Shown here: piece after piece, positions 34,889-54,280 of the stretch
How positions within the stretch are numbered: position 1 is the stretch's first letter
Layout of the letters: every line of letters starts with the position of its first letter
Assembly (NCBI GenBank): GCA_045538555.1
Contig: JAZSRP010000049.1
Span: 65,476-129,475 of the forward strand
Source: Eubacteriales bacterium
GTDB taxonomy: Bacteria; Bacillota; Clostridia; Oscillospirales; CAG-382
Length of the DNA: 64,000 nt
Reading direction: 5' to 3'
Made by a program: the position numbers and the translations under genes
The notes under the pieces: generated by a model
Told to the model about the DNA's origin: nothing
The model's input: only the letters and a program-made list of their open reading frames with translations
The model's database searches: none

Positions 34889-34924
34889 GAAAACGACAAG
34901 TTTCGAAAGAAACTTGTCGTTTTC
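34889..34924 (-). terminator. 15-bp perfect hairpin directly 3' of the displaced tRNA-Leu end (probable original tRNA terminator)
   Basis: GAAAACGACAAGTTT (34889-34903) pairs with AAACTTGTCGTTTTC (34910-34924). Confidence 0.6.
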
Positions 34925-34978
34925 TGGTGCGGGTGACAGGACTTGGACCTGCACAACATTGCTGCCACTAGAACCTGA
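34925..34978. repeat. attL-like direct repeat: partial copy of the tRNA-Leu 3' end
   Basis: 54 nt identical to 54281-54334 except 34946 (G versus A). The mismatch disrupts the T-loop TTC. Confidence 0.9.
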
Positions 34979-35286
34979 TGGTGATGCCACCTTGTTGTAA
35001 TATTTTCGAGATAATGTTATAAGAACAAAAAATGTATTGATTCTTCATTCTATCTTTTGCACCACCCAAGGAACCGATATAATAGTCTTCCCAAATTGCT
35101 ATAACAGAAATAGAGCCATCGAATAATGATTCATCGGAAAAATAACGCACGGTAGGCTTTCCTAAGTTATAGGATACCGCAATAACAATTGCTGCTTGAT
35201 TTCTTCTTCCTTGCTCAGTTCATAGGAAATCTGTCAAACGCAGCATGTCTATTTTTGAACCATATTTGTAGCAGAGCCTGAATACA

Positions 35287-35559
35287 TTAGTTTTCATGCC
35301 CCAACACGCAAACATTTTGACAAATGCTTTCGATATCGTGAGTGATATATGTTGAAAGCAAAGTCGTTTTAGTAAAGCTTATTCTCGACAATAGATTCAA
35401 GAAATAAAGTCGTTCTTCTGGGGCGAGTCTCGTGGTAGGCTCGTCAATTATCAGCAAATCAGGAGAATCTAACATTGTCTGTGCAATTCCGGCTCTGTGA
35501 AACATACCGTCTGGATATTTTCTAAGAAGTCTTTTCTTTTCGTCTTTAAGCCCTACGAT
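35287..35559 (-). pseudogene. ABC transporter ATPase fragment (C-terminal part only)
   Basis: Reads IVGLKDEKKRLLRKYPDGMFHRAGIAQTMLDSPDLLIIDEPT. The signature motif is degenerate (YPDGM), Walker B is present, and there is no Walker A. Confidence 0.7.
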
Positions 35560-35616
35560 TTACACACATTGCTGGGTTTCGTCCAGTCTCTGGCTATTTG
35601 AGAGTATGCGTTTTGA

Positions 35617-35943
35617 AACGCATATATACCCTTGATACCTGATATTGAAAAATTATTTTTTAAAACCAAAAAGCAACAAGAGAGCAACCGAAGAAAGTGC
35701 TGCAAAGCCTACAATAAGGAATTTCTTGATTATGTATGTGTAGACAACATTGGGAATCTTTTATGACCGGATTATGTGGCGCAACTTTCACAGACTATGA
35801 TCAAAATAAACAACTTAAAGCTTCGGTATCACGATTTGCGATACGCTTGTGCTTCGCTACTACTTGCTAACGGTGTATCTTTAAAAGAAATCCAAGAGTG
35901 AATGGTACATTCGAATTTTAGTACTACGGAAAGTATTTCATAA
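35617..35943 (+). pseudogene. tyrosine integrase remnant (C-terminal third, two in-frame TGA stops)
   Basis: The translation YIPLIPDIEKLFFKTKKQQESNRRKCCKAYNKEFLDYVCVDNIGNLL*PDY...LRYHDLRYACASLLLANGVSLKEIQE*MVHSNFSTT aligns by eye with the C-terminus of the intact integrase at 52971..54146. Stops are at 35764-35766 and 35899-35901. Confidence 0.85.
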
Positions 35944-35994
35944 CAACATGGAGTTATAACTCAGTAAGTATAATTGCCAAGAAATCAAGCCTTA

Positions 35995-36023
35995 AGCAAA
36001 AAGGACGGTCAAAAAACCGTCCC
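35995..36023 (-). terminator. intrinsic terminator
   Basis: GGACGG (36003-36008) pairs with CCGTCC (36017-36022), with a T-run on the minus strand. The same stem sequence follows the intact integrase gene. Confidence 0.65.
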
Positions 36024-36054
36024 TAAAACATATAAAAAACTTTATATTTTAAGA

Positions 36055-37320
36055 TTATTTTTTTGTTTTTGAATACCCGTAGAAAATAAAAAAGGGTATT
36101 GCCATTACAAAAGCAGTAATTAACAGTGTCACTACTATAAATGATAATGCATTACTCGAGGCAAAATCTATCAGTTTGGGTTCAATATATTTATAAGCAA
36201 ATGTTTCAATAAACCACCAGCATAACAATATAACGTAAGAGCATATGATTATAATATTTAATATTACTATGTATGGATATCTCTTAACAATTCTGTTAAT
36301 GAAATTGCATTTGGGATTGCCACAATCGCCCTCTGGACAACCTTTACAATTGACTGCTATGCTCTTATTTGCCAAACGGGCTATCATAAACATAAATAAG
36401 AACAACAAGTTCATAAGGATATGTCCCATTAAAACAAATCTCCCAACATTTACTTGAACAATATTAGATATGCTAAGATTTGTAATTTCTCCCGTTACAG
36501 TAAAATATGCGCCGACAATCACAAAAATTATTGATACAAATATACCCAAGATGGTAAGAACATTGGTTAATAATGAACTCATTTCGGTTTTTGTTTTATC
36601 GAGATCTTCTTTAGTATCATTAAAATTAGTTATTGCTTTATTTAAGTTTTCGCTTGTGGTTTCAAATTCCGTTTTAACTTTATCAAACTTTTGATTAACT
36701 TTATCGATTTTTTTATCTACAATTTCATTGGCTTCTTTGATTTTTTTTTCTACGTTATTATCAAATTCCTTTAAAACTGTTTCGTGATTTTTGATTTGTT
36801 CTTCGAGTTTTTCGTTAGGTAAACTCGAAAACTTCTCAAACTCCTTTTCTTGCTTCTTAATATCTTCTTCAGACTTACTTATTCCTTTTCTAACAAGTAA
36901 TTCGTACTTTAAGGCGGATGAAAACATATTAACATTATATCTGAATTCATTATCATTTAAATAATAATAAAATCCGTCTTTTTCTTGTTTAATTAAACTA
37001 CTATCACATGATTCAAGCGTGTCGCCGAAAGTTTTGATAATAGCTATAGGAGCAATCAACTCGTTCCATCGTTTGTTTTCCAACAAATCAAACATAAAGA
37101 AATAGTGCGGTCTAAACGATGGGTTGATCGAGAAAATATTATATAATTTTATAAGAATAGATTCGATCTTTTTGTCTTTTTCTTGCTTTTCGATACCAAT
37201 ATAATCAACATTAGAAAAACAGATTTCTTTTGCCATCTGTTCGATTAATTTTTGTTGCCTGACTCTTGGATTATCAATTGTCCCGCTTGTTTTTTCGAAA
37301 TTCTCTTTCTTATCATCCAT
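36055..37320 (-). CDS. hypothetical protein: cytoplasmic N-domain, long K/E-rich coiled coil, 4 C-terminal TM helices with a CxxC..C..C loop
   Basis: 421-aa ORF. Its ATG overlaps the stop of the upstream Panacea-domain gene by 8 nt. No recognisable catalytic motif. Confidence 0.75.
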   Translation of the reverse strand: MDDKKENFEKTSGTIDNPRVRQQKLIEQMAKEICFSNVDYIGIEKQEKDKKIESILIKLYNIFSINPSFRPHYFFMFDLLENKRWNELIAPIAIIKTFGDTLESCDSSLIKQEKDGFYYYLNDNEFRYNVNMFSSALKYELLVRKGISKSEEDIKKQEKEFEKFSSLPNEKLEEQIKNHETVLKEFDNNVEKKIKEANEIVDKKIDKVNQKFDKVKTEFETTSENLNKAITNFNDTKEDLDKTKTEMSSLLTNVLTILGIFVSIIFVIVGAYFTVTGEITNLSISNIVQVNVGRFVLMGHILMNLLFLFMFMIARLANKSIAVNCKGCPEGDCGNPKCNFINRIVKRYPYIVILNIIIICSYVILLCWWFIETFAYKYIEPKLIDFASSNALSFIVVTLLITAFVMAIPFFIFYGYSKTKK

Positions 37321-37798
37321 TTATTACGATCTCGCTTTTTAAATCATATACACCCGAAAAATAACTTTGTATGGATTTAGTGCTAATAATATTGTAATCG
37401 ATAGAATCGCAAATAGCTTCTTTCCATGGTGTTTGTTTTTTAGTAGCAATTCCAAGCATTTGCCTATCATATATACCGTATTCCAATATGAAATTTTTAA
37501 AATAATCTCTAATCAGCGAAGGTATTGTGAAAACAAAATCATATGGCTTTGTTATAGGATCGTATTCCCAATCATTAAAGATAAACTCTAATTCTTTTAT
37601 ATATGGTCCACAAGGATATGCATATATATCCTCTTCAAAAATCTTTTCGCCATATTTTGCCAAATAACATCCTTGCGCCAAATATAGCAACTTATTCACT
37701 TTGTAAAAGTCCATTAAGAATTTTTCATCAGACATAGACTCCTTAAATTCTATTCCGTAAGAAATAGCCAATTTAGCTATATCGGCGGCTTTGCACAT
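37313..37798 (-). CDS. Panacea (DUF4065, SocA/GepA-like) domain protein, antitoxin-like
   Basis: 161 aa with AAGGAG upstream. NKLLYLAQGCYLAKYGEKIFEEDIYAYPCGPYIKEL matches my recollection of the DUF4065 core (KLxYyAqg...g.pLf.e.feAw..GPv...vY). Confidence 0.65.
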   Translation of the reverse strand: MCKAADIAKLAISYGIEFKESMSDEKFLMDFYKVNKLLYLAQGCYLAKYGEKIFEEDIYAYPCGPYIKELEFIFNDWEYDPITKPYDFVFTIPSLIRDYFKNFILEYGIYDRQMLGIATKKQTPWKEAICDSIDYNIISTKSIQSYFSGVYDLKSEIVING

Positions 37799-38231
37799 TT
37801 TATATCGGCTCCTTAAAATAAAATACTATTTAATATTAATATATTTCGAAAACTAAAACTGGTGACAGTATGCCAGCAGTGGTTTTTTGAATCAGCTCGG
37901 TAGGATTTACTGTTACCTACTGTCTATGGCATGTGGTTAATTCGCTTGAGTAGTTTAACAAAAACTTGTTGAAAAGTCAAGTATATATTCTATTTTATGT
38001 TCATAATAACAAAATATACATTACAGTGGAAGTGTACTGAAATTCAAAGTTGATAAAATAATAAAGGATTAATTTGACTTGACAATATCGATAGAGTTAA
38101 TATTCAATGTTGTAAAGCATGTGTACAATTTATTCACTTAAAATGAAAACCTTGCTGATGGTGTATGCCAAATGAATAGGTTTTCTTTTAATTTTCTTCG
38201 ATTCAGTTTGGGAAAAAATGTGCAATATTTA

Positions 38232-38260
38232 TTGACAAACTTTAAAAACTGTGCTACACT
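38232..38260 (+). promoter_or_regulatory. sigma-70-like promoter of the LexA-like/UvrD operon
   Basis: TTGACA (38232-38237), 17 nt, TACACT (38255-38260). Confidence 0.55.
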
Positions 38261-38266
38261 CCGGAT

Positions 38267-38281
38267 GAAACAAAATGTTTC
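38267..38281. promoter_or_regulatory. palindromic operator candidate GAAAC-N5-GTTTC
   Basis: GAAACAAAATGTTTC begins 7 nt after the -10 hexamer. It resembles the Gram-positive LexA (Cheo) box GAAC-N4-GTTC but is not identical to it. Confidence 0.45.
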
Positions 38282-38305
38282 TATATTTGCGAGGTAGTTA
38301 TAGTT

Positions 38306-38932
38306 ATGAAGAGTATTCGAAATGAAGCTAAACCAAAGATAATTGAATTTATAGATGCCTATTATAACGATTATTTTACTGTTCCTACTGTACGTGAGAT
38401 TGCGGCAGGAACAGGTATATCTGTTTCTACAGTTCATCGTTGCTTGAATGTGATGAAAGAAAACGGTGAGCTTGAATATAGCGGACGCCGTTCTATTTCG
38501 ACTCCGCGTACTGCTATGGAAGGTAGCTATAATGCAATGCCTGTTCTCGGTTATGTTGCTTGTGGACCGGGTCAGGAGGAAGAAGAACAGCTTCTTGAAT
38601 ATATCCGTATGCCCGAAACTATTGTCGGTAATGATGAATGCTTCGCTTTAATTGCAAAAGGCGAGTCTATGGTTGACATTGGAATCTATCCCGGCGATTA
38701 CGTATTTGTCCGTAAACAAAACACCGCAAGCGTCGGCGACGTTGTTGTCGCGCTTCTTGATGGCAAGAATAATTTAAAGGTTCTTGATTACGATAGCAAT
38801 ACAAAACAATACGTTCTCAAATCCTGTAACGCAGATAAAGAAACCTATGAGGATAAAATTGTTGAAGGTGAGCTTCAAATTCAAGGTGTTGCGGTTTCTG
38901 TATCCCATAAGCTCGGGAAAGTGAAGATTTAA
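38306..38932 (+). CDS. LexA-like repressor (winged HTH plus S24 autopeptidase)
   Basis: N-terminal HTH VREIAAGTGISVSTVHRCL. The cleavage-site region is VLGYVACGPG. Ser is in KGESM and Lys in NNLKVL. Confidence 0.85.
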   Translation: MKSIRNEAKPKIIEFIDAYYNDYFTVPTVREIAAGTGISVSTVHRCLNVMKENGELEYSGRRSISTPRTAMEGSYNAMPVLGYVACGPGQEEEEQLLEYIRMPETIVGNDECFALIAKGESMVDIGIYPGDYVFVRKQNTASVGDVVVALLDGKNNLKVLDYDSNTKQYVLKSCNADKETYEDKIVEGELQIQGVAVSVSHKLGKVKI

Positions 38933-38933
38933 T

Positions 38934-41102
38934 ATGGATAACTTACTTAACGGACTAAACGAATCACAAATAGAAGCTGTTACAACTACCGACGGATATA
39001 TTCGCGTTATTGCAGGCGCAGGAACAGGGAAGACGCGTGCTCTTACTCATAGATATGCCTACCTCGTAAACGAGCTTGGTATATCACCTTCGAATATACT
39101 TTGCATTACCTTTACAAATAAAGCCGCAAACGAAATGAAAAAGCGTATAAAGCGCATGCTAGGCGACGAGTTCGATACTTCGTTTGTCGCAACGCTTCAC
39201 GCTTTCTGCACGAGAATATTGCGCGAGGAAATATATAAGCTCTTTTATCCCGATAATTTCATTGTATTGGATAATGTCGATCAGAAGAAGATCCTTGAAG
39301 AAGTCTATGACGAAATGTGTATTCGTATGGATACCGCAAGTTTCAAGTTTATGATCGATCAGATACGCTATTATAAAAATCTTATAACCTATGTAGAATA
39401 TCTGTCAAACCCTAATTTCGATTATTCAACACTTGTAGCGCAAAATAAGACGGAGGAGATAATCTTTCGTTACATAAATAAGCAACGCAAGTATTTCGGA
39501 CTTGATTTCTTCGACCTTATCAATTTTGTAATATACCTTTTCAGAACATATCCCGATGTACTCGAAAAATGGCAGAAAAAGCTCTGCTACATTATGGTTG
39601 ATGAATTCCAAGACATCACCGCAAAGGAATTCAAACTTATTCGCAGACTCTCAGAATTCAACCGTAATTTGTTTGTGGTTGGCGACCCCGACCAGAACAT
39701 ATACGAATGGCGCGGCGCAAATATGAGTGTTATCGTGGATTTTGAGTCTTGGCTGAACAACGAATGCTTCGAGGATAACCTCAATCTCAAATCACGCGAT
39801 ATTGTTTTAAGCAAGAATTACCGTTCCACAAAGAGTATATTAAGCGTAGCCAATTCATTGATTGAGAAGAACCAAAATCGTGTAGAAAAGGCATTAAGCG
39901 GTTCTTTCGAAGACGGCGAAAAGGTTAAATATCTCCACGCAAAGAACGATAAGGATGAAATCAAATATATTTGCGACGAGATCGCCAACCACGTAAAGAA
40001 TGGCGGTAAATACAGCGATATTGCCGTGCTATACCGTTCTAACTACGTTTCACGCTTTGTTGAGCAGGGCTTTCTTTCAAGAAACATACCTTATGTCGTT
40101 TACGGCGGTGTCGGTTTTTATGAACGAGCAGAAATTAAGGATGTATTGTCTTATATGCGCCTTCTGGAGCATACTGACGATGATTTGTCCTTTAAGCGAA
40201 TTATAAATGTGCCAAGGCGTAAAATCGGTAAGATAAAATTAAAGGTATTATCAGAATATGCCGAGCAAAACGGAACGTCTTTGTATGATGCGTTAAAAGC
40301 GTTATGTGAAACCGATACATTCAAATCCTGCAAGGCGAAGGAGTTTGTCGCTCAAATAGAATTACTTCGTCAACAAGCAGACGAGTTTGCGGTTTCTGAA
40401 CTTCTTCAAGCGATCCTTAATAAAACGGGTTATGAACTGTATATCCGTGAAAGCGGGGATATAGAACGCTTGGATAACGTTTCCGAGCTTATGCGTAGCA
40501 TCGTTACACAGGAAAACGAATTCGGCGAGCCCTTAACGCTTTCGACCTTTTTGCAGAATATAACGCTTCTGCGCGACAGCGATGTGGAGGATAAGAGTGA
40601 TTGCGTTAAGATTATGACAATACATACCGCAAAAGGTCTTGAATTCGACACGGTATTTCTTGTCGGACTTACGGAGGGTATTTTTCCTTCTGCAAGAAGT
40701 CTCGAAGAACGCAAGAACGATGCTCTTGAGGAAGAACGTCGCCTTTGCTTTGTTGCAATAACAAGAGCAAGAAAACGTCTGTACCTCACCGAAAGCGAGG
40801 GATTTGGTGTAAAGGGCTTTTCAAAAGTTCCGTCACGCTTTGTATTTGATATCGACAAATCATTGCTGGATAAAATCGGAACTGTTTCCGCAGACATTAT
40901 GGATGAATATGTCGTATTGAAGAAACGGTTTGATAAAACCGAACTTGAAGTATATAAGGTCGGTGACCAAATACGCCATAAGGTGTTCGGTGAAGGCATA
41001 GTCGAGGAAGTGGACGAGGAAACAAGAACCTATTATATCCGCTTTGTCAACGGCAGAAAACCGATCAACTTTAACTATAACGGCTTAAGCCATGTTTTTT
41101 AA
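38934..41102 (+). CDS. UvrD/PcrA/Rep family ATP-dependent DNA helicase
   Basis: Motifs AGAGTGKT, TFTNKAANEM, VDEFQD, NYRS and TIHTAKGLEF, with a C-terminal Tudor-like tail (GDQIRHKVFGEGIV). Confidence 0.9.
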   Translation: MDNLLNGLNESQIEAVTTTDGYIRVIAGAGTGKTRALTHRYAYLVNELGISPSNILCITFTNKAANEMKKRIKRMLGDEFDTSFVATLHAFCTRILREEIYKLFYPDNFIVLDNVDQKKILEEVYDEMCIRMDTASFKFMIDQIRYYKNLITYVEYLSNPNFDYSTLVAQNKTEEIIFRYINKQRKYFGLDFFDLINFVIYLFRTYPDVLEKWQKKLCYIMVDEFQDITAKEFKLIRRLSEFNRNLFVVGDPDQNIYEWRGANMSVIVDFESWLNNECFEDNLNLKSRDIVLSKNYRSTKSILSVANSLIEKNQNRVEKALSGSFEDGEKVKYLHAKNDKDEIKYICDEIANHVKNGGKYSDIAVLYRSNYVSRFVEQGFLSRNIPYVVYGGVGFYERAEIKDVLSYMRLLEHTDDDLSFKRIINVPRRKIGKIKLKVLSEYAEQNGTSLYDALKALCETDTFKSCKAKEFVAQIELLRQQADEFAVSELLQAILNKTGYELYIRESGDIERLDNVSELMRSIVTQENEFGEPLTLSTFLQNITLLRDSDVEDKSDCVKIMTIHTAKGLEFDTVFLVGLTEGIFPSARSLEERKNDALEEERRLCFVAITRARKRLYLTESEGFGVKGFSKVPSRFVFDIDKSLLDKIGTVSADIMDEYVVLKKRFDKTELEVYKVGDQIRHKVFGEGIVEEVDEETRTYYIRFVNGRKPINFNYNGLSHVF

Positions 41103-41117
41103 TAAGGAGAATTAAAA

Positions 41118-41621
41118 ATGGCAGAGATAATAAAAGTTTTCAAAGAGAATATCCCCAATATGCGCTTTATCGGAAAGAAGTATGGCGAATTCGGTCATTG
41201 GGGTGAATTTTGGGTAAATGATTGGTTTAGTTTGCTTGAAAAATCAATGGGCGGTACAGATGCAATACTCAATATTTGGGAAAACGGTGGCGGTTATGTA
41301 GGGCTCGAGCATTGGACTCCTAATGCACCGTTTGAATATTGGCTCGGCATGTTTGCGCCTATTGATACAGAGGTTCCCGATGGGTTTGAATACATAGATT
41401 TTACCGATCTTGCTCTTGGTACTTGCTGGATATACGGATGTGAAGCAGAGGTTCACGATGCTTCTGCTTGTCAACCAGCATTGATACAAAACGGTATGAC
41501 CATTTGGAAAGATGCTAACGGCGGTACTTGGTCGTTCGAAAACTGCCTCTGCCCAAGATATACTACACCCGACGAAAACGGAAAAATCATTCTTGATTAC
41601 TGTTATTTTGTGGAGAAATAA
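41118..41621 (+). CDS. GyrI-like / effector-binding-domain-like small protein (tentative)
   Basis: 167 aa. MRFIGKKY...WGEFWVNDWFSLLE resembles the C-terminal domain of the XRE regulator at 47259..47933. The fold assignment comes from motif memory only. Confidence 0.4.
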   Translation: MAEIIKVFKENIPNMRFIGKKYGEFGHWGEFWVNDWFSLLEKSMGGTDAILNIWENGGGYVGLEHWTPNAPFEYWLGMFAPIDTEVPDGFEYIDFTDLALGTCWIYGCEAEVHDASACQPALIQNGMTIWKDANGGTWSFENCLCPRYTTPDENGKIILDYCYFVEK

Positions 41622-41623
41622 TT

Positions 41624-42574
41624 ATGGAAAACATTATTAACTGGTTACTCGAAGAAAAAGAACCTTCTATTAGATACAGAACTCTTACCGAGATTTTGGA
41701 CAAACCCGAAACCGATCCCGAAGTTATTGAAGCGAAAGAAGCGGTGCTTCAATCAAAGAATGTTTGCCGTCTGTTTGACCGCTTGGATGACAGAGGATTG
41801 TTTCCTCATATTCAAAAGTTTTACGGCAATTTTACTACTTTCAGTTATCTCTATGCTCTTGCAGAACTTGGCTTGAAAAAGGGTGATCCTCATATTAACG
41901 AGATAGTTGATTGGATATTGATTCCCGGCGAGGACAAGCATGAGCATTTTATGCAGAAAGAGTTTCAAAATGAACATGCATATCTGCTTGACGAAAGCAA
42001 TCTCGGCAGTTGCCGCCAGACCGATTTCCTCGGTACATTGTTAAGACTTGGTTTTGGCGATGATGAGAGAGTAAAGAAGTTGATAGATGCGTTTATCGAA
42101 AAGAACAGATTTGACGGAGGTTATCTCTGTAAATGGAAAAAGAGCCGACATAAAGGTCAAACACCCAAAAGCTGTGTAGGTACTACTGTTAATGCGTTAA
42201 GAGTATTTTCCTATCTTCCCGAAGAATACAGGAACACCGATGCATATAAAAACACACTTGAATATTTTGTCAGCAGAAATATGATTCACAGCAAAATCAA
42301 TCCCGATGAGATCATCTGCTCTACAAATGCTTTCTACAACGGTTGCGGAATGTCTCACGCTTTTGTTCTTGCCGATGCAATGAGCCGTTTAGGACTTGCC
42401 AACATACCCGAAATGAACGAGGTATGGGAGATTATTGAAAGTAAAAAAGATGCCGAAGGCAAAGTAGTGTTAGAAGCTACCGATACAAAGAAAACACTTA
42501 TTATGGACGGCGTAGGCAAGCCTAATAAATATCTTACTCTTAATTTGCTTTTGAGTTATAAACATAGAGGATAG
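41624..42574 (+). CDS. hypothetical protein (possible alpha/alpha-toroid fold)
   Basis: 316 aa. Its N-terminus INWLLEEKEPSIRYRTLTEIL is similar to the N-terminus of 44792..45838. Confidence 0.6.
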   Translation: MENIINWLLEEKEPSIRYRTLTEILDKPETDPEVIEAKEAVLQSKNVCRLFDRLDDRGLFPHIQKFYGNFTTFSYLYALAELGLKKGDPHINEIVDWILIPGEDKHEHFMQKEFQNEHAYLLDESNLGSCRQTDFLGTLLRLGFGDDERVKKLIDAFIEKNRFDGGYLCKWKKSRHKGQTPKSCVGTTVNALRVFSYLPEEYRNTDAYKNTLEYFVSRNMIHSKINPDEIICSTNAFYNGCGMSHAFVLADAMSRLGLANIPEMNEVWEIIESKKDAEGKVVLEATDTKKTLIMDGVGKPNKYLTLNLLLSYKHRG

Positions 42575-42578
42575 TCGT

Positions 42579-42908
42579 ATGAACACAAATATCATAGGTT
42601 GTTGTGGTCACGACTGTTCGAGGTGTATTACATATCTTGCAACAATTAAAAATGATGATGCTTTACGAAAACAGTCGCAGCAGTTTTATAAAACTATGTT
42701 TGGCATGAATATTCCGATTTGTGAAGTCAACTGTCTCGGATGTCGTTCGGATAAGGTGTTTATACTTTGTAAGAGCTGTCCGTTTACAAAATGTGCGTCG
42801 GAACGGAAAATAGACGAGTGCTCTGAGTGTGTAGAATATCCTTGTAAAGCCCTTACGGAATATCAAGAAAAATATGTAAACAAGTGCAATCAGATTAAGT
42901 GTGATTAG
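42579..42908 (+). CDS. DUF3795-like Cys-rich (putative metal-binding) protein
   Basis: Cysteine pattern CCGHDCSRC...CLGC...CKSCPFTKC...CSECVEYPC. Confidence 0.65.
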   Translation: MNTNIIGCCGHDCSRCITYLATIKNDDALRKQSQQFYKTMFGMNIPICEVNCLGCRSDKVFILCKSCPFTKCASERKIDECSECVEYPCKALTEYQEKYVNKCNQIKCD

Positions 42909-42918
42909 GAGAAAAGTT

Positions 42919-43560
42919 ATGAGTACATATATTTTAACAAGTATGTTTAAAAACGAATTAGATGATAAATTTGCCAAACGACTTCGAGAAATAATAACAA
43001 GTAGAAACAGTTTTGTTTTTATAGCTTCTGACTTTGAAACAAATCACGAGAAGAACGACAAGTATTGCAATCATTGGCGTGATATGCTTTGTGACATTGG
43101 AATTGAATTTAAAAGTATCTTTGTGGTTGATGGGAGAATAACTCCCGACGAGGCCAAAAAAATCATTGAAAAAGCTGACTTTATTTGGCTCTCAGGTGGT
43201 GATACGCCAAAACAATTTGGATATATTAAACAATATGGTCTGGATACAGTTTTGAAAGAGTATAGTGGTATTTTATTTGGAATGAGTGCAGGAAGCATAA
43301 ATCTCTCCACTATGGCAGTTTGTTCTTTAGCAAGTGGTCACTATGTTCAAGAAATATATAACGGATTGGGTTGTGTTAATATTTCAATAGAACCTCACTT
43401 CTCACTTGATAAAACCGACGAGATATTGCAATTATCTGAAAAGTACAAACTTTATGGAGTGCCTGACGATAGTGCTATTATACTTCATAACAACGAAGTG
43501 GAGTTTTATGGGGATATTTTTATAGTCGAAAAAAGAATAATTAACAAAGTAACTATTTAA
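42919..43560 (+). CDS. peptidase S51 (dipeptidase E-like) family protein
   Basis: Trimmed to MSTYILTS with AGGAG upstream. FIWLSGGDT...FGMSAGSINLS matches the S51 nucleophile-elbow region. Confidence 0.7.
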   Translation: MSTYILTSMFKNELDDKFAKRLREIITSRNSFVFIASDFETNHEKNDKYCNHWRDMLCDIGIEFKSIFVVDGRITPDEAKKIIEKADFIWLSGGDTPKQFGYIKQYGLDTVLKEYSGILFGMSAGSINLSTMAVCSLASGHYVQEIYNGLGCVNISIEPHFSLDKTDEILQLSEKYKLYGVPDDSAIILHNNEVEFYGDIFIVEKRIINKVTI

Positions 43561-43573
43561 AGAGGAAACAATT

Positions 43574-43945
43574 ATGATAAAACGCCTACCTACCCATTGC
43601 GGTGATGAAACCTGTCCGTCTTGTGTTGTTGCGGGAGATTATATCTTCCTTGCCCATCACGCGGGTGGTTTTGAAAAGAGCGATATTGCTTACCAAACAA
43701 GAGTTGCTTTTGAAGCAATCAAAAACACACTCGCATCCGTCGGCGCAACCCTTGACGATATGGTGCAACTTAATTATTACATCAAAAATACCGAAGACTT
43801 CCGCACAGGACGGGATGTATTTACTGAATATTTCCCAAACGGCGCACCTGCAAGAATGACCGTTGTAACCCAATTCCTTGACGATAACTGTCTTTGCCAA
43901 ATAGACGGTATTGCTTATATAAGAAACGAGGAAAATAATGATTGA
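43574..43945 (+). CDS. RidA/YjgF family protein
   Basis: 123 aa. AYQTRVAFEAIKNTLASVGATLDDMVQLNYYI...ARMTVV is typical of the family. Confidence 0.75.
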   Translation: MIKRLPTHCGDETCPSCVVAGDYIFLAHHAGGFEKSDIAYQTRVAFEAIKNTLASVGATLDDMVQLNYYIKNTEDFRTGRDVFTEYFPNGAPARMTVVTQFLDDNCLCQIDGIAYIRNEENND

Positions 43946-44729
43946 AGCATATATCAACATACAGAACAGGCTCGGTGAAGAAGTCTCGAAGTCTTGGGAA
44001 AAACTTGTTGGCTTCGTCCGTGCATATTACGTTATGGAAGAACTGTGGGATGGAAAGGAAATATTAAAATTTCGCAAAAGCGGCAAAACGCTCGTTTCGT
44101 TAAGCGTGCAGGAAAATCGTTTCAACGCACTTGTTATCTTTGGAAAAGCGGAACGAGAGAAATTTGATGCGGTCAGAGATAACTTTTCGGATTATATACT
44201 TAATTACTATGACAACAGCCGTACATATCACGACGGAAAGTGGATGTTTATTGACGTTGACATCAACGCCAACATCGACGAGATTATTGAACTCATTAAG
44301 ATAAAAAAGAAACCCAACCGTAAGGTTGAGAACTTAAAAGATGCTGAAATAGGTTGTTGCGGTAACCGATGCGACCAATGTCTTTTACGAGCTACTAACG
44401 GCGGTAAAGAAAACCGAGTTCTGTTTACCGACGAGAATTACAAAATATACTTCTCTCCCGATGAACAAAAAGAAGACTATTCAGGCGTTAACTGCGCCGG
44501 TTGTTATCAAGGCTGTAAAACAAGAGATTGTGCAAAGGGAAAAGGATATGACGTTTGCGTGCAATGCGAGAATTATCCTTGCGAAACGGTTTTAGGCGCT
44601 TTTACTCATCCCGGAAGATGCAATGTAGGGCTCACACCCGAACAGCTTGATCTTCTCGTTATTCCGTATTGCGGTAAAGAAAGATTTGACCGTTGTAGAG
44701 ATCAGCTTTGTAAGAAGGATATGAAATAA
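43938..44729 (+). CDS. DUF3788-like N-domain fused to a DUF3795-like Cys-rich domain
   Basis: Overlaps the stop of the upstream gene. The C-terminal cysteine pattern is CCGNRCDQC...CAGC..GC..RDC...C.QC.NYPC. Confidence 0.6.
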   Translation: MIEAYINIQNRLGEEVSKSWEKLVGFVRAYYVMEELWDGKEILKFRKSGKTLVSLSVQENRFNALVIFGKAEREKFDAVRDNFSDYILNYYDNSRTYHDGKWMFIDVDINANIDEIIELIKIKKKPNRKVENLKDAEIGCCGNRCDQCLLRATNGGKENRVLFTDENYKIYFSPDEQKEDYSGVNCAGCYQGCKTRDCAKGKGYDVCVQCENYPCETVLGAFTHPGRCNVGLTPEQLDLLVIPYCGKERFDRCRDQLCKKDMK

Positions 44730-44791
44730 TAAAACGAAGTTAACGCACAAGGCGTCGATACGAAAGCGATAAAGGATCTGAGGTAAATACG

Positions 44792-45838
44792 ATGAAATTT
44801 CAAAAACATATAGATTTTCTTCTTGACAACGCTTGTACGAGCATTAAGTTTCTCGTTCATCGAGATTTTTTGCATACACCTTTGACAGAACCGTTTATGC
44901 AGAAGATGCGCGACGAGATATTGGAGCAAGAAAATATTAAAAAGCATCTTGCTTGCCAACATCCCGACGGATGGTTTGGTGACGAGCTTCACGGCGGCGA
45001 ATACGGAATGGAGCGCTCTATCGGTACACTTTTGAATGCAGGTGTTGAAAAAGAACATCCGGCAATCCAAAAAGGTATTCATGCGCTTATTACTCCCGAA
45101 ATATCATCGCAACACAAAAATTGGTTTCACGGCGGCGACGGATTGGACGCCGAAGGCAGAGGTGGTAATAATGCGATTATTGCATCTATTCTTTCTTGGG
45201 TAGGGTATGACGAAACTTATCCCATTTTGGCTGAACAGATCGTGCTCTCTTGGGAACACGTCGAAGCGGTTCGCAATTATAACGCCGTTGATGATTTCAC
45301 CAAGAAAGGCAAAAACGAGAGATACTATAAACCTAACGCTCGTTTCCCCGGCGCGAATCACATCGGATTGCTTAATGCAACACAAAGCTGGCGATCTAAT
45401 GAAAGAATGGAAATTGCAAAAGCTTCTATGAAACACGCCTATGAGTTGATGAAAGATTTTGATGAATACATCACCTTCAAAAAGCCGAAAGAATTAGGAG
45501 GCAGCTTCGTCGGTCCGTTTAACTATAATTGGCAGGCATTAAAGCCGACAGACGGAAAACAGTTATACGAAATTATCAATGATCCGTATAACTTCAGGTT
45601 TGCGTTTTGGCTTGGTTCTGTTTCGGGTGTTCCCGATTGGGTTCGTCAGTCGAACGAAACATATTTTGTCTTGGCTGACTTTCTTGAAAAAGAGGATAAC
45701 GTCGATGTTATCCCCGATAGAGTGTTCAGCGCATTCCGTAGAGTATCGGGCAAAGAACCCAATTATAGAAAACGCTCTACTGCGAAGTGCGATTTGACAT
45801 ATGCATTGCTTCGTGCCGTTTGGAATATGGTGGATTAA
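44792..45838 (+). CDS. hypothetical protein (distant paralog of 41624..42574)
   Basis: 348-aa ORF with GAGG upstream. Shares an N-terminal motif with 41624..42574. Confidence 0.6.
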   Translation: MKFQKHIDFLLDNACTSIKFLVHRDFLHTPLTEPFMQKMRDEILEQENIKKHLACQHPDGWFGDELHGGEYGMERSIGTLLNAGVEKEHPAIQKGIHALITPEISSQHKNWFHGGDGLDAEGRGGNNAIIASILSWVGYDETYPILAEQIVLSWEHVEAVRNYNAVDDFTKKGKNERYYKPNARFPGANHIGLLNATQSWRSNERMEIAKASMKHAYELMKDFDEYITFKKPKELGGSFVGPFNYNWQALKPTDGKQLYEIINDPYNFRFAFWLGSVSGVPDWVRQSNETYFVLADFLEKEDNVDVIPDRVFSAFRRVSGKEPNYRKRSTAKCDLTYALLRAVWNMVD

Positions 45839-45998
45839 AAGGAAAACGGGAAAATCCACGACTGAATTCCGTAGATCCCATCTATGATTTCTGTGTTTAT
45901 CTCAACATAGCATTTGAATGTGTATCAGAACTTATGAAAATGTATCAGAAATTTGTTTGAAAACTAAACGAATCTAAAATTAAGGAGAAAGAGTATAA

Positions 45999-47129
45999 AT
46001 GAGTAAACCAACAATATTTTTCAGCCACTCGTCAAAAGATAAGGATGCAATACTAGCAATTAAGAATAAGTTGGATAATTCAACTGGCGGAGCATTGGAT
46101 ATATTTATGTCAAGCGATGGACAAAGTATTCCTTTTGGTACAAATTGGATACACAAAATTGAGGAAGGTTTGCAAGCTGCGAAAATTATGTATGTATTTG
46201 TAACCGAAGTATCGGTTACTTCTGGATGGATATATTTTGAGGCTGGCTTTGCATATTCAAAAGGAATTCAAGTTGTTCCCGTCGGTATCGGCATCGATAT
46301 TGGAACTCTAAAGGCTCCTTTGAATTTGCTTCAAGGTTTTAATATCACATCTGAGGATAGTTTGAATAATTTTATTACTATTATAAACAGAACATTTGAT
46401 TATCACTTTAAAGAAGCGTTTGATAAAAATGATTATACTGAGATAATAAGTTTAACTTCGTTGAACACAAATAAGGCAGTTGGATTTGAAAAAATTGTTC
46501 GTCAAACAGAATGCTCAATTTACTCAGACCAAACATCTAATGGCGAGAAAAAAGAGTATGACTTAGAGTTATGTTTCAATAAGATAATTGACTACTTAGA
46601 CCGCAATTCTATCAGTTATTCTCGGGATAATAAATATCACGGAATCGAGTCTCGCGTTTGTATAATGGTATATGGAATAAAGATGGTTTACTACAAAGCC
46701 CAAAAGAAAAATCCAAATGTTCGATATTCGTCAGATGAGCCGGGGGAAATCAAGTTTCAAATATCTCCGTATAATTTTACCAAGTCGTTTGATTTACTCA
46801 AGGAATTGTTATTGCTAATGGAAGACAAACCCACCCACTATCTTAGAGTATATTTACAAGATGAGTATGAATATGTGAATTCGGATGAAAACGTAGCATC
46901 AATTATATCTAATGCAGATGGATTCGATTTTAACAAGTCGTATATCGGTGGATACATTTACAACGAGCTGGATTTGCAGTTTTATATTTTCGAGGAACAT
47001 CGCGACATACGAAATCGTCAAACCGATCATTTGATTTCAATAGTATACAAATGTGATACAGTTTGTGCTAACCATATTACTAACTTGCTACACAGACTTT
47101 GCGATATTGGTTTGATTTGTGAAAAGTAG
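45999..47129 (+). CDS. TIR-domain protein with an unassigned ~240-aa C-terminal region
   Basis: AAGGAG upstream. The N-terminus PTIFFSHSSKDKD...IMYVFVTEVSVTSGWIYFEAGFAY fits the bacterial TIR pattern (beta-A FxSxxxxD and a conserved Glu after a WxxxE-like motif). Confidence 0.7.
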   Translation: MSKPTIFFSHSSKDKDAILAIKNKLDNSTGGALDIFMSSDGQSIPFGTNWIHKIEEGLQAAKIMYVFVTEVSVTSGWIYFEAGFAYSKGIQVVPVGIGIDIGTLKAPLNLLQGFNITSEDSLNNFITIINRTFDYHFKEAFDKNDYTEIISLTSLNTNKAVGFEKIVRQTECSIYSDQTSNGEKKEYDLELCFNKIIDYLDRNSISYSRDNKYHGIESRVCIMVYGIKMVYYKAQKKNPNVRYSSDEPGEIKFQISPYNFTKSFDLLKELLLLMEDKPTHYLRVYLQDEYEYVNSDENVASIISNADGFDFNKSYIGGYIYNELDLQFYIFEEHRDIRNRQTDHLISIVYKCDTVCANHITNLLHRLCDIGLICEK

Positions 47130-47258
47130 ATTTGATACATTTTTAGTATCTATCAAAATATGATAAAAGTCCTTGGCTTTTGCTATACGCAACGAAATGT
47201 TGCTTGATTATTCGTGTTACTTTTGATAAACTGAATTCATCAAAAGAGGTGTTGCAAT

Positions 47259-47933
47259 ATGATAGGAGAGAACATAAAAGATTTTAGAGTAAAAAAGAAT
47301 ATAACTCAAGAAGAACTTGCAGAAAAATTGAATGTGACAAGGCAAGCAATCTCAAAATGGGAAAACAACAAAGGCGAGCCGGACTTGAATATGCTTTGCA
47401 ATATCGCAACTGTGTTGTCCGTGACCGTAGAAGAATTGCTTGATGGCGAATGTACTGTTCAAATGGAAGCCATATGCAAAGAAATACAACCTGCACTTCG
47501 CTTTATTGGGAAAAGATACAAGGGTAACGAAAGCATTCGCACCAAGTGGAATCTGTGGAAAGAAAATGGTTGGTTTACTGTTTTGGAAGGTTTGGATAAC
47601 CGATATGGAAACAATTATATCGGCGCAAAACGTATTGTTGATGGCATGTTGGAGTATTGGATAGGCATGATTTTCTTTCAAAATGCTGCAGTCCCTAATG
47701 GGTTTAACTATATTGATATTGATGCAGTAAATTTGGCTGTATTTCAGTTGCGCGGAAAAGCACATAAAATCACTTCCTTTGAAACACATAACCTTTGTCT
47801 CGATGAACTTGACAAAAACGGAATGATACGTTTTGAAGATCATTGGTGTTTTGAGTGTTATGATGATAAGTCTATTGATTACATTGGAACTGACAAATCA
47901 ATGACAATTGATTATAAAATATCCATATTGTAA
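47259..47933 (+). CDS. XRE-family HTH regulator fused to a GyrI-like/effector-binding-like domain
   Basis: The N-terminal ITQEELAEKLNVTRQAISKWENNKGEPDL is a classic XRE HTH. The C-terminal domain resembles 41118..41621. Confidence 0.8.
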   Translation: MIGENIKDFRVKKNITQEELAEKLNVTRQAISKWENNKGEPDLNMLCNIATVLSVTVEELLDGECTVQMEAICKEIQPALRFIGKRYKGNESIRTKWNLWKENGWFTVLEGLDNRYGNNYIGAKRIVDGMLEYWIGMIFFQNAAVPNGFNYIDIDAVNLAVFQLRGKAHKITSFETHNLCLDELDKNGMIRFEDHWCFECYDDKSIDYIGTDKSMTIDYKISIL

Positions 47934-47968
47934 ACAAACAGCCGAGGAATCACCTCGGCTGTTTGTTT
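47932..47968. terminator. bidirectional terminator, 16-bp perfect stem
   Basis: AAACAAACAGCCGAGG (47932-47947) pairs with CCTCGGCTGTTTGTTT (47953-47968). Confidence 0.9.
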
Positions 47969-48009
47969 ATATGCAGAATCTGAAGAAACTATTTTATAAC
48001 AGAAAAGAA

Positions 48010-48924
48010 CTAAATCGTATTTCTTAAAAACAACATATTTCGTATGGCAAAATAAGGACGCCACCATGCAGTTGCAATATGCTGCTCGGGATAATCCGTC
48101 CACCATTGCCAAGTGACAGGAAAACCTCCGTCTTCGGATTGATATTGTTGCAACAGTTCACGTTCTTTCAATAAAAGTTCTTTGTTGTCCTCGTAGAACA
48201 TGCTGTCCTTTGAGAGAATAAAGTCGGACGGTTTCGTATGATACTCGGCAAACCATAAGTCATAATTGGGATTGATACAATGCTTAACTTGTTTTCGAAG
48301 AAGCTCTGCGAACTTGCTCATGTCCAAAAACGAAACTTTGGGCACAATACAATCATCATACAAATTACAAAAACAGGTTGTAACATGCTGTTCATCAAAA
48401 GGAATACTTGCTTCCAAAAAGGCAAACGCTTCTTTTGCAATCGATACGCCCTTTTGATACAATTCCGATTTGGGATCGGCATACCGTATAATAAACCCTG
48501 CAAGACTTGCTGTCGGGTTATATTTGAACTCGCTGCCACCGTCGCCATATGTCCACCATGTTGCATGCGGATGATCGTTGTTGGTCGGAACAACATTCAG
48601 CCATTGCTGATGCACCTCGTCAAAATCTGCACTGCTTTCCAAATAGCGCAAAATTCCTTCAACAATCGGATGCGTTGCATCTTTCCAACCGATTTCTCTT
48701 AACACTTCGGTTGCAAACCATGTCGCAATCGGTGTTGAATTAGGATTCCAGCAATCCGGCTCCAAAGCATAACCAAACCCACCATCTTCGTTTTGATAGT
48801 AAGACAAGGCGTTCATTACAGTTTCTTTACTGCCGTTTTCAAAATGAAATTGCCACCTTGCAAGATCAAGAGGACGAGCGTAGCGATAAACAAAGCTTCT
48901 TGTTTTTTCAAATATACTCATCAT
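48010..48924 (-). CDS. hypothetical protein with prenyltransferase/terpene-cyclase-like QxxDGGF repeats
   Basis: 304 aa containing YQNEDGGFG and YQSEDGGFP motifs. ATGA coupling to the upstream gene. Confidence 0.6.
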   Translation of the reverse strand: MMSIFEKTRSFVYRYARPLDLARWQFHFENGSKETVMNALSYYQNEDGGFGYALEPDCWNPNSTPIATWFATEVLREIGWKDATHPIVEGILRYLESSADFDEVHQQWLNVVPTNNDHPHATWWTYGDGGSEFKYNPTASLAGFIIRYADPKSELYQKGVSIAKEAFAFLEASIPFDEQHVTTCFCNLYDDCIVPKVSFLDMSKFAELLRKQVKHCINPNYDLWFAEYHTKPSDFILSKDSMFYEDNKELLLKERELLQQYQSEDGGFPVTWQWWTDYPEQHIATAWWRPYFAIRNMLFLRNTI

Positions 48925-50003
48925 AGCAACGCTCCCATAAATCTCACGGGCATTTTTCCGTAGTTAACGGATTGAATGGCATCGACAATTTCTGCCTTGC
49001 GTGCTTCGGCATTTGGCAAATCGCAAACGATATCGTTGAGGTCGTACGGACCGTTGCGGAAGTGACCAACAGATGCGCCGTGAAACTCGCCGTCAATAAG
49101 GAGATATTGCAACGGCTCGTGGTCATATTCAAGACCATCAGTAAGGCGTTTTGCATAGTCTTTTAAAATGTGTTCGTGGGATTTATAAAGAAAATCGTTC
49201 CTGTGGAGTGCGTAAACAAAGTGCATTTCCTTGGTTTCATAAGTTTCGAGCAATTCGGCATCGGTTCTGAGCATGAATCCACTGTCGGATGCTACTAAAA
49301 CGCCTTCGGCCACTAAATCGCTCACCGCAAACTTAATTTCCTTTTCGGGCAGTTTATAGAATGATTTTGCCATTGCGGTATCGAACCAAACAAGTCGGTA
49401 TGCAAATTTCTGTAATACGATTTTTAGAGCTTCGTGTCTTGTGTATTTATCTTGGTTTACATTTGGGAACATTTCACCGAAACGATACCAACCTCTATCC
49501 CATTCACCGTCGTACTGGTCCTCATAAATCAAGAACGCTTCTTGCAAACGGTGAAGAATAGGTGTTATCTGCTTTACAAGCAATCCCGTTTCTTCTTTTA
49601 TCTGCTGAATGGTGTACGGACCCGACGTTTCGATAAGTTCAAGAATGGTTGATTGGTCTGCGGTAGGTTTTGTAAGCGGTTTTCGATATAGACCGATAAA
49701 CAATTCCATATCCTCGGGGACGATCCAACCAAGATTACCACCCGAAAAACGACCTTTAATAAGCTCACGCTTTAACTGTCTTTCACGATTAAACTCAATA
49801 TCGTTGAAATCAGTTCTGAAGGAAAGTGTAGGCGGTTCGCCAAAACCGTTCCAATAAACATTCTGCCCCGGTTGCATATCTCGATAAAGGTTTATGTATT
49901 CGCTTTCATCAGCTTTATTAACAAAGCATTGACGCTCCATACGGAGAGAAATGATTTTTTCGTTCATAGTTGCACCATTATTATCAATCGTCATTTTCAT
50001 CAA
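48921..50003 (-). CDS. winged-helix protein, possibly YcaQ/AlkZ (DUF1006) family
   Basis: About 350 aa. The N-terminus is IISLRMERQCF and an internal wHTH-like segment reads ILELIETSGPYTIQQIKEETGL. The start is uncertain (50003 or 49967). The family call is from memory only. Confidence 0.45.
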   Translation of the reverse strand: MMKMTIDNNGATMNEKIISLRMERQCFVNKADESEYINLYRDMQPGQNVYWNGFGEPPTLSFRTDFNDIEFNRERQLKRELIKGRFSGGNLGWIVPEDMELFIGLYRKPLTKPTADQSTILELIETSGPYTIQQIKEETGLLVKQITPILHRLQEAFLIYEDQYDGEWDRGWYRFGEMFPNVNQDKYTRHEALKIVLQKFAYRLVWFDTAMAKSFYKLPEKEIKFAVSDLVAEGVLVASDSGFMLRTDAELLETYETKEMHFVYALHRNDFLYKSHEHILKDYAKRLTDGLEYDHEPLQYLLIDGEFHGASVGHFRNGPYDLNDIVCDLPNAEARKAEIVDAIQSVNYGKMPVRFMGALL

Positions 50004-50166
50004 AATATATACATTGTTTTAAGCACTCACCACAGTTCATACAATTATTATCGACAACGGGAGATGGAAATCCGTTATCATTCTTCACAAACACAATATG
50101 CTCACAGTTACAAGCGCGACAACCAGTGCATAAACCCGATTCGACAACTTTTGTAATGTTATTCAT
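49984..50166 (-). CDS. small 2x[4Fe-4S]-like ferredoxin-motif protein (may be a gene remnant)
   Basis: 60 aa with CTGCRACNC and CMNCGECLKQC. Overlaps the downstream ORF by 20 nt. Confidence 0.45.
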   Translation of the reverse strand: MNNITKVVESGLCTGCRACNCEHIVFVKNDNGFPSPVVDNNCMNCGECLKQCIYFDENDD

Positions 50167-50167
50167 T

Positions 50168-50446
50168 TTATTTTCCTTCTTCTAACAGATCTCTAAGGTT
50201 TTGAATTTCTATACCGTTACCTTCGGGATTTTCACTTTTACCGATGTTTATAAGCTGTTCGCAGGGAAAATTCTTGCATTGTCCGCAATGGTTAAGTCCT
50301 TGGTTAACTGCACAATCGTGAGTATCGCAAGTACCGCCCCAAACACATTTACCTTGAGGTGCAACGATTCTACAACCCTCGCATTTTTTGTCGATCATAA
50401 AAGGACATTTAGCGCAGTCAATTCCGCATACAGATATATTTTTCAT
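50168..50446 (-). CDS. DUF3795-like Cys-rich protein
   Basis: Cysteine pattern CGIDCAKC...CEGC...C...C..HCGQCKNFPC. Confidence 0.65.
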   Translation of the reverse strand: MKNISVCGIDCAKCPFMIDKKCEGCRIVAPQGKCVWGGTCDTHDCAVNQGLNHCGQCKNFPCEQLINIGKSENPEGNGIEIQNLRDLLEEGK

Positions 50447-50467
50447 TTATGTACTCCTTAAACTATT

Positions 50468-51034: not shown

Positions 51035-51059
51035 ATTTATATCCTTTCGAAACTGATTA

Positions 51060-54279: not shown

Positions 54280-54280
54280 G

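Follow-up and report, generated by a model that had tools for sequence, protein, structure and literature searches.

We describe here a nine-gene operon in a 64-kb stretch of DNA from an uncultured Eubacteriales bacterium (contig JAZSRP010000049.1; this whole stretch is referred to as the window), headed by a gene for a divergent LexA paralogue with its own predicted operator. The operon lies in an island integrated at a tRNA-Leu gene, and the best explanation of the whole is that it is the damage-regulated cargo operon of that island, a reading to which we give a little better than an even chance. The nine plus-strand open reading frames (ORFs), between 38306 and 45838, are numbered g1 to g9, and related loci in other genomes with which the window was compared carry L-numbers (L001 and so on).

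In the mechanism that we propose, the island would descend from a widespread family of integrative mobilizable elements (IMEs) of gut Clostridia that carry a LexA paralogue of their own. A dimer of the g1 product would bind GAAACA-N3-TGTTTC over the transcription start and repress both itself and the genes behind it. Following DNA damage, RecA filaments on single-stranded DNA would lead to self-cleavage at Cys86-Gly87 by a Ser121/Lys158 dyad, and the cleaved repressor would then leave the operator and permit transcription of the operon. In typical members of the family, damage would bring about excision and mobilisation, by analogy with SetR and CI; in the window and in locus L001 the promoter would instead drive a helicase, a GyrI-like protein, toroid proteins, DUF3795 proteins, an S51 peptidase and a RidA protein. 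What the sequences themselves show is the layout of the operon, the footprint at the operator, the limits of the island and the associations between genes; repression, dependence on RecA and the biochemistry of the cargo are inferred. The parts of this proposal differ in strength: self-repression at the operator at 38267-38281 is quite probable, RecA-dependent induction of the operon is modestly favoured, and the idea that the cargo genes act together to confer tolerance of DNA-damaging small molecules is tentative, falling somewhat short of an even chance.

A LexA paralogue and its predicted operator

Gene g1 (38306-38932, + strand) codes for a protein with a winged helix-turn-helix (HTH) and a Peptidase_S24 domain (PF00717; 72.7 bits against a cut-off of 23.3, residues 79-197), and it aligns end to end (residues 7-202) with the TIGR00498 lexA model at 91.1 bits, under the cut-off of 110.95. 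Alignment with the Thermotoga maritima LexA (3K2Z) places Cys86-Gly87 on the Ala-Gly cleavage site, Ser121 (in GESM) on the catalytic serine and Lys158 (in NNLKVL) in the lysine region, and all four residues are invariant in 16 relatives that are 65-72% identical. The original prediction of a winged HTH plus S24 protein with a Ser/Lys dyad and a Cys-Gly cleavage variant is thus borne out. Cys-Gly is the UmuD variant of the scissile site, and UmuD of Escherichia coli is cleaved at Cys24-Gly25 in a RecA-dependent manner; g1 matches the UmuD model NF007621 at 3.9e-12. UmuD is likewise of the S24 family, but it has no DNA-binding domain and is a subunit of polymerase V. Vescimonas (Oscillospiraceae) has a canonical LexA that shares 38% identity with g1 and has VAAG at the cleavage site, and the promoter of that lexA gene carries a CGAACagttGTTG box. 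With an S24 domain above threshold, a Ser/Lys dyad and a Cys-Gly linker site, g1 belongs among the S24 self-cleaving repressors; it is not a canonical LexA, from which it differs in its equivalog score, in having no SOS box and in not being a single-copy core chromosomal gene. As judged from its sequence, g1 is a divergent LexA paralogue with every hallmark of a self-cleaving LexA-type repressor.

Upstream of g1 is a sigma-70-type promoter (38232-38260, + strand) that consists, as predicted, of TTGACA (−35, 38232-38237) and TACACT (−10, 38255-38260) separated by a 17-nt spacer with a TG extended −10. Starting 6 nt past the −10 is the predicted operator O1, GAAACAAAATGTTTC (38267-38281), an inverted repeat with arms of 6+6 nt around a 3-nt AAA centre (GAAACA-AAA-TGTTTC) that spans the predicted transcription start. 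It had been described as a perfect palindrome resembling a Cheo box, and neither description can be kept: the repeat is not its own reverse complement, and the half-sites of GAAAC-N5-GTTTC stand 1 bp further apart than those of the Cheo box GAAC-N4-GTTC, of which there is no copy in the entire window. The Cheo-box reading was rejected on these grounds. Because the window lacks GAAC-N4-GTTC, and the lexA gene of Vescimonas carries CGAACagttGTTG, the g1 operator belongs to the paralogue family and is not the host SOS box.

The site at 38267-38281 is the single exact GAAAC-N5-GTTTC of the window, where 0.12 are expected by chance and 11 of 100 shuffles contain at least one. One such site per 64 kb is weak evidence when taken alone, but the comparative footprint across the family loci argues that it is highly non-random. 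Allowing one mismatch, a scan found no further copy of the operator in the island, including the regions before the excisionase and integrase genes, and returned only a tRNA terminator hairpin (34890-34923) and intragenic sites.

The footprint comes from a large family. The protein database holds 525 homologues of g1, and a scan of species-representative genomes gave 139 hits, of which 79 loci were kept and 1.1 Mb of DNA was fetched. All 79 are in metagenome-assembled genomes of Clostridia (Eubacteriales, Oscillospiraceae, Ruminococcus), some of which hold two to four copies, adjoining relaxases and integrases. The family diverges to 53% identity with the catalytic apparatus and Cys-Gly invariant throughout, and the annotated phage and plasmid collections contain no close relative (identity at most 37%). 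Nearly all of the 67 distinct upstream regions share the −35/−10 layout seen in the window, with a conserved TTGACA-17-TAnAAT. The footprint places GAAAC-N5-GTTTC 3-6 nt past the −10; in most loci another copy stops 7 nt short of the −35, and one subclade has a third over the −35 and spacer. All 29 exact occurrences of GAAAC-N5-GTTTC in the 1.1 Mb lie upstream of family members (24 counted directly, and five where a crude gene caller chose a shadow ORF), an enrichment of about 340-fold. In one clade the site is the symmetric GGAAC-N5-GTTCC and the recognition helix is altered (ISVSTVHRCL to IAVTSVHRYL), and two family members with a His-to-Phe change in this helix have no site. This co-variation would fit a dimer that reads both half-sites, with shared ancestry as a confounding factor. 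A strong phylogenetic footprint thus points to the inverted repeat as the operator of g1, in agreement with the earlier proposal that g1 represses itself through the repeat in its promoter.

A further conserved motif, ACAAAGAAAA, is present about 90-130 nt upstream of the LexA-like start in L002-L014 and L023-L040, upstream of the second operator. In many of these otherwise divergent loci it is found, often preceded by CCGCA(G/T)NAAAC and frequently following closely on a DUF6809 gene; the motif may belong to the end of an upstream gene, or be a regulatory or transfer-related site.

We clustered the neighbouring ORFs of the family loci and ran Pfam on the cluster representatives. The genes behind the repressor code for AAA_25/DnaB-like or HTH_36 replication proteins, RHH/MobC proteins, MobL or MobA/VirD2 relaxases, excisionases, and either one or two tyrosine integrases or a large serine recombinase. 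Among the 48 loci with at least 5 kb of downstream sequence, mobility genes occur on the same strand in 40, and a recombinase in 36. The g1 family therefore stands first and foremost at the head of IME mobility operons, and the helicase cargo came under it by secondary capture. A homologue of g5 (DUF3795; 61% identical) follows immediately on the repressor in L003 and L009, ahead of the mobility genes; since this is so, and since the downstream genes of L001 differ from those of the window, the position behind the repressor is a cargo slot.

The helicase cargo and its relatives

The nine ORFs are tightly packed as predicted, with gaps of 1, 15, 2, 4, −8, 13, −8 and 62 nt. Gene g2 (38934-41102, + strand) codes for a full-length PcrA/UvrD-type superfamily-1 helicase with its C-terminal domain (UvrD-helicase PF00580, 1.9e-69; UvrD_C PF13361, 1e-77) and with GAGTGKT and DEFQD in the translation, confirming the predicted assignment. 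It scores below the cut-offs of both equivalogs (TIGR01073 pcrA, 625 bits against 911; NF008743, 529 against 965) and has homologues at 60-97% identity. Gene g3 (41118-41621, + strand) codes for a stand-alone GyrI-like small-molecule-binding domain. By itself it has no direct Pfam match; a profile of the family, built from 40 homologues, matches the GyrI-like domain of BrlR (2.9e-7) and SA2223 (1.6e-3), and 11 of the 40 homologues match the Pfam GyrI-like family PF06445, so that the predicted GyrI-like nature of g3 stands. The profile has six matches in PDB at E≤1, among which no YtkR7/C10R6 hydrolase entry is recognisable.

The original prediction spoke of two related alpha/alpha-like proteins, g4 and g9. 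The first (41624-42574, + strand) is modelled by AlphaFold2 as an (alpha/alpha)6-toroid (pLDDT 89), with Foldseek TM scores of 0.45-0.51 to GH88/GH105 proteins, terpene cyclases and prenyltransferases. In the g4 alignment Cys130 and Cys184 are invariant and Cys169 is nearly so, which hints at a metal or thiol site, and distant homologues carry PF13243. The second (44792-45838, + strand; 348 aa) shares homology with the g4 family in its N-terminal ~100 residues only (hhalign 94.6%, E 7e-8), so this half of the claim holds in part; g9 has no match in Pfam, NCBIfam or PDB sequences, and direct PDB sequence searches with g3, g4 and g9 gave nothing significant. The remaining genes, all on the + strand, have the Pfam matches expected of them: g5 (42579-42908) is a Cys-rich DUF3795 protein (9.7e-15); g6 (42901-43560) an S51 peptidase of the PepE/cyanophycinase type (2.4e-15) with a GMSAGS nucleophile motif, absent from L001; g7 (43574-43945) a RidA/YjgF family member (Ribonuc_L-PSP, 3e-15) with a 97% identical copy in L001; and g8 (43938-44729) a DUF3788-DUF3795 fusion.

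Inspection of the intergenic sequence found no terminator-like hairpin between g9 and the next gene, which codes for a TIR-domain protein (45999-47129, + strand; TIR_2, 6.4e-10, with weak ThsB-like and retron-TIR matches). Behind it is a gene for an XRE-type HTH fused to a GyrI-like/Cass2 domain (47259-47933, + strand), a paralogue of g3 (30% identity) and the second GyrI-like gene of the island that had been predicted. A strong bidirectional stem-loop terminator at 47934-47970 (CAAACAGCCGAGG-aatca-CCTCGGCTGTTTG plus a T-run) is the likely end of the plus-strand unit. Because there is no terminator after g9 and a strong one here, the transcription unit may hold eleven genes, g1 to g9 together with those for the TIR protein and the XRE-GyrI fusion. 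The spacer between g9 and the TIR gene (from 45919) has a short direct repeat, ATGTGTATCAGAA / ATGTATCAGAAA, before the TIR gene, and this could be a site for another regulator, perhaps the downstream XRE-GyrI fusion. Among public sequencing runs there is no RNA run with the operon sequence, and DNA runs hold at most 10% of its words.

L001 is the sole locus of the repressor family that shares the helicase cargo. Its g1 protein is 96% identical, and its DNA is 90% identical to window positions 38231-42561, with the homology running from exactly the −35 through g4. Past g4, L001 shares only g5, there in an alpha/beta-hydrolase-DUF3795 fusion, and g7, and it has a radical SAM gene and AbiH in place of g6, g8 and g9. 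Conservation of the gene order in other genomes, proposed earlier as a check, applies to g1-g4, which are collinear in L001; the nine-gene set is not kept there.

Exact-protein look-ups provided ten further contexts for relatives of g2, and a metagenome scan for close relatives returned only generic PcrA at 36-47% identity. In five of the ten a gene for an AraC-HTH/GyrI-like regulator is directly upstream of the helicase gene: in L081 and L164 (helicases 81-82% identical to g2) the C-terminus of this regulator is 81-82% identical to g3 and genes for UDG and a Tag-type glycosylase are nearby, and the helicases of L165, L168 and L171 are 75-77% identical to g2. In L165 (77%) and in L082 (73%) the helicase gene is followed by one for a WYL/PafC-like regulator. 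The same-strand cluster of L082 has homologues of g4 (55%), a DUF3795 gene, a GyrI-like gene, an H2TH (Fpg/Nei-type) gene and a 66%-identical homologue of a 360-aa ORF of the island (see below); that of L165 has homologues of g4 (apparently split, 46-58%) and g8 (38%) and a DUF3795 gene. The helicase gene of L170 (76%) is followed by uvrB. In L167 (80%), inside another mobile element, a LexA-like protein only 39% identical to g1 precedes the helicase and a 62%-identical g3 homologue, and this protein keeps the Cys-Gly, the serine and the lysine. The remaining two relatives (L166 and L172; 60-67%) are in housekeeping contexts without GyrI-like neighbours.

Nine of ten counted contexts at 73% identity or more to g2 (the window, L001, L081, L082, L164, L165, L167, L168, L170 and L171) thus have the helicase/GyrI-like pairing, which is therefore recurrent, and it is wired to ligand-sensing or damage-type regulators. 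Regulators of the WYL/PafBC type are DNA-damage responders.

Two observations were made in passing in these loci. The LexA-like gene of L167 has an inverted repeat GTGAATG-N6-CATTTAC at the same place after the −10 (7100-7225), with a GAAACA-containing element upstream of the −35. In L169 (4960-10275) a 68%-identical g4 homologue lies between genes for MutS2 (MutS_V and Smr), Veg and an MgsA/RarA-type ATPase, which is another DNA-maintenance neighbourhood for this cargo family.

The island at tRNA-Leu

Between about 34 and 55 kb of the window the GC content falls from ~46-49% to 30-41%. A 54-nt direct repeat (34925-34978 and 54281-54334; 98% identical, spacing 19356) corresponds to the 3' part of tRNA-Leu(CAG), the gene for which was identified with ARAGORN at 54281-54367 (− strand) and has the right att repeat as its 3' 54 nt. 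The left att-type repeat (34925-34978, − strand) is a copy of these 54 nt at the left end of the island, and the native tRNA terminator hairpin is at 34890-34923. Beside the tRNA gene are genes for an excisionase-like HTH protein of 75 aa (52637-52864, + strand; TIGR01764 excise, 7.7e-5) and a tyrosine integrase (52971-54146, + strand; Phage_integrase, 4.3e-26, with a SAM-like N-terminal domain). From the tRNA-Leu repeats, the excisionase and integrase genes beside the tRNA gene and the drop in GC, the island occupies 34979-54280, or ~19.3 kb, and is an integrated one as had been supposed.

A site-specific recombinase and flanking att repeats are features of an IME, and the island is also tied to the repressor family: its integrase falls in the same protein cluster (F1) as the integrases that end the family mobility operons, and the excisionase-integrase pair has counterparts 57% and 45% identical in family locus L047. 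Like IMEs of the Firmicutes, it has integrated at a tRNA gene with repeats, has a tyrosine integrase and an excisionase, is low in GC and carries accessory cargo. It differs from them in the decayed integrase and ABC fragments at its left end, and among its ORFs that were scanned (all those of at least 120 aa, the 75-aa excisionase-like ORF and a 92-aa DUF3795 ORF) none was recognised as a relaxase or Rep; an origin of transfer (oriT) was not searched for.

The left end (35287-35900) contains part of an ABC ATPase gene, of which L001 has an intact version at 75% identity, together with what is left of a frameshifted integrase gene akin to the intact one at 52971-54146; these suggest decay or tandem accretion. 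Divergent from the LexA-like promoter is a SocA/Panacea-domain gene (37313-37798, − strand) that overlaps by 8 nt the gene for a 421-aa protein (36055-37320, − strand) with a coiled coil, four predicted membrane helices and a Cys-rich segment; the pair looks like an antitoxin-toxin system of the PanA type. Convergent with the main operon is a five-gene operon (48010-51821, − strand) for a 304-aa protein, a 360-aa protein, a DUF3795 protein, a GNAT acetyltransferase and a SAM methyltransferase. The third alpha/alpha-toroid-like protein is the one of 304 aa, which has two QxxDGGF motifs, and the DUF3795 gene (50168-50446, − strand; 92 aa) is the third of the island.

The 360-aa ORF of this operon (48921-50003, − strand) had been taken for a YcaQ/AlkZ-like gene, an assignment that is not supported: it has no HTH_42 match in Pfam (E≤0.1) or NCBIfam, and a PDB sequence search returned no AlkZ/YcaQ chain. 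A single-sequence AlphaFold2 model was too poor for fold comparison (pLDDT 36). The ORF is 66% identical to the product of the gene two positions upstream of the L082 helicase relative, and a candidate second homologue in L165 turned out to be unrelated.

Competing explanations and implications

Self-cleaving repressors on mobile elements and LexA paralogues are already known kinds, and g1 can be compared with several of them. It shares with LexA of the DinR type the two domains, the S24 Ser/Lys dyad, the cleavage loop and a dyad operator in the promoter core, from which autoregulation is predicted; it differs in being ~38% identical, in its Cys-Gly, in the wider spacing of its half-sites, in being borne by mobile elements and, in the 1.1 Mb examined, in having no sites away from its own promoter. 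SetR of SXT/R391, lambda CI and Arp1 of ICESt3 are element-encoded S24 repressors that silence mobility genes until DNA damage occurs (SXT regulation is reviewed in PMC4542580), as the g1 family may do by analogy. They have an HTH of the CI/XRE type, whereas that of g1 is a LexA-type winged HTH, and the genes that would be repressed in the window are the helicase and small-enzyme cargo, not mobility genes.

E. coli has sbmC (gyrI) and uvrD as separate chromosomal genes of the SOS response, controlled by the host LexA. Here a GyrI-like protein and a UvrD helicase would likewise be under LexA-type control, in one operon behind a LexA paralogue, but g3 is only distantly related to characterised GyrI-like proteins. 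GyrI-like proteins also protect the producers of DNA alkylators with a cyclopropane warhead (PMC9854587). The cargo resembles such self-resistance kits (YtkR7/C10R6, AlkZ/YcaQ) in combining a GyrI-like protein with DNA-repair functions, and relatives of the module lie near H2TH, UDG or Tag-type genes. It differs from the kits in having no biosynthetic cluster and no HTH_42 protein detected; no structure matched by the g3 profile was recognisable as one of the hydrolases, and the hosts are gut anaerobes and not producers. Since the helicase/GyrI-like core recurs under AraC-GyrI or WYL regulators or beside uvrB, the most likely role of the cargo is to tolerate or repair the DNA damage that small-molecule genotoxins or drugs inflict. 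The general idea of a DNA-damage or genotoxin kit is thus backed by the recurrent neighbourhoods, and its AlkZ/YcaQ element finds no support.

Several points weigh against a damage-regulated tolerance operon. The window and L001 carry a single operator and most relatives have two or three, so repression at this promoter may be leaky. The nine-gene set is a mosaic and not a fixed system, because only the g1-g4 order is kept in one close relative and the genes downstream differ. The g2 helicase may be just a spare copy of the PcrA/UvrD of the lineage, because the L166 and L172 relatives sit in housekeeping contexts. Moreover, g3 appears from its profile to resemble ligand-binding GyrI-like domains (BrlR, SA2223) and not the known hydrolases, and as far as the searches go no DNA glycosylase is demonstrably present in the island.

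The mosaic arrangement also invites the view that g1 is a leftover regulator of a decayed mobilizable element, followed by eight miscellaneous cargo genes that are induced by damage as a by-product and have no joint action. The repressor heads mobility genes, not this cargo, in 40 of the 48 informative loci; singleton or variable genes often stand directly after it, such as the DUF3795 genes of L003 and L009; L001 has no more than g1-g4, g5 and g7 in common with the window, separated by other insertions; and the island has decayed integrase and ABC fragments and no recognised relaxase. We nevertheless consider this unlikely, as an S24 repressor, a helicase and a GyrI-like protein come together again in L167, where the repressor is only 39% identical, and the helicase/GyrI-like pairing co-occurs with the g4, g8, DUF3795 and 360-aa ORF families in chromosomal clusters that have no relation to this element. 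Alternatively, g1 could be a real repressor that is not responsive to RecA and the SOS signal, whether it answers to another signal or to an element-encoded factor or is simply stable. This fits a g1 score under the TIGR00498 cut-off and a Cys-Gly rather than Ala-Gly site, and some S24-type repressors on mobile elements do respond to other inputs. The invariance of the catalytic apparatus and Cys-Gly down to 53% identity argues for maintained self-cleavage, however, and cleavage of UmuD at its Cys-Gly is RecA-dependent, such that a signal other than RecA seems a rather poor prospect, below even that of a leftover regulator.

Two further alternatives assign the helicase another function. An anti-phage defence module composed of a GajB-like helicase, the TIR protein and the PanA-type pair, induced by infection-associated DNA damage, would account for the matches of g2 to the PADLOC GajB and DRT-helicase models, the TIR/ThsB-like gene directly downstream, the SocA/Panacea pair upstream and the AbiH gene in the L001 array. 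But g2 scores 625 and 529 bits against the PcrA/UvrD models and 338 against GajB, none of its neighbours matches GajA, and its close relatives adjoin uvrB, AraC-GyrI regulators or housekeeping genes, making defence very improbable. Gabija and other known defence systems were rejected as candidates, there being only generic helicase and TIR matches and no GajA OLD-family nuclease. Least probable of all is that the helicase serves rolling-circle replication or transfer of the element in place of a Rep/AAA_25 gene. PcrA does serve ICEBs1 and rolling-circle plasmids, and relatives often have a replication protein (AAA_25/DnaB-like or HTH_36) right after the repressor, but the island has no recognised relaxase or Rep and g2 relatives occur in non-mobile contexts.

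In the open-access full-text literature we found no account of the g1 family, the GAAAC-N5-GTTTC operator or the helicase/GyrI-like module, although such absence is not proof. If the proposal is true, it defines a family of LexA paralogues, widespread in gut Clostridia, that has an operator of its own, and there would be a testable link between DNA damage, for instance from antibiotics or gut genotoxins, and the mobilisation of integrative elements in commensals that are largely uncultured. In the variant seen in the window the same switch would be re-used for a helicase/GyrI-like module that recurs under two other stress-sensing regulators. A broader possibility, which we regard as speculative and on balance doubtful, is that gut Clostridia share a dedicated, horizontally mobile module for tolerance of DNA-damaging small molecules, among them genotoxins made by the microbiota or drugs, with a helicase and GyrI-like core, partners of the Cys-rich alpha/alpha-toroid, DUF3795/DUF3788 and RidA types, and three sensors (the LexA paralogue, AraC-GyrI and WYL), the LexA paralogue family being a second SOS-type circuit re-used for a repair kit. 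Such a circuit, if real, would be previously unrecognised and would normally trigger transfer of a mobilizable element. The module would also offer a handle on DUF3795, DUF3788 and the Cys-rich alpha/alpha toroid, and on the ways in which anaerobes withstand small molecules that damage DNA.

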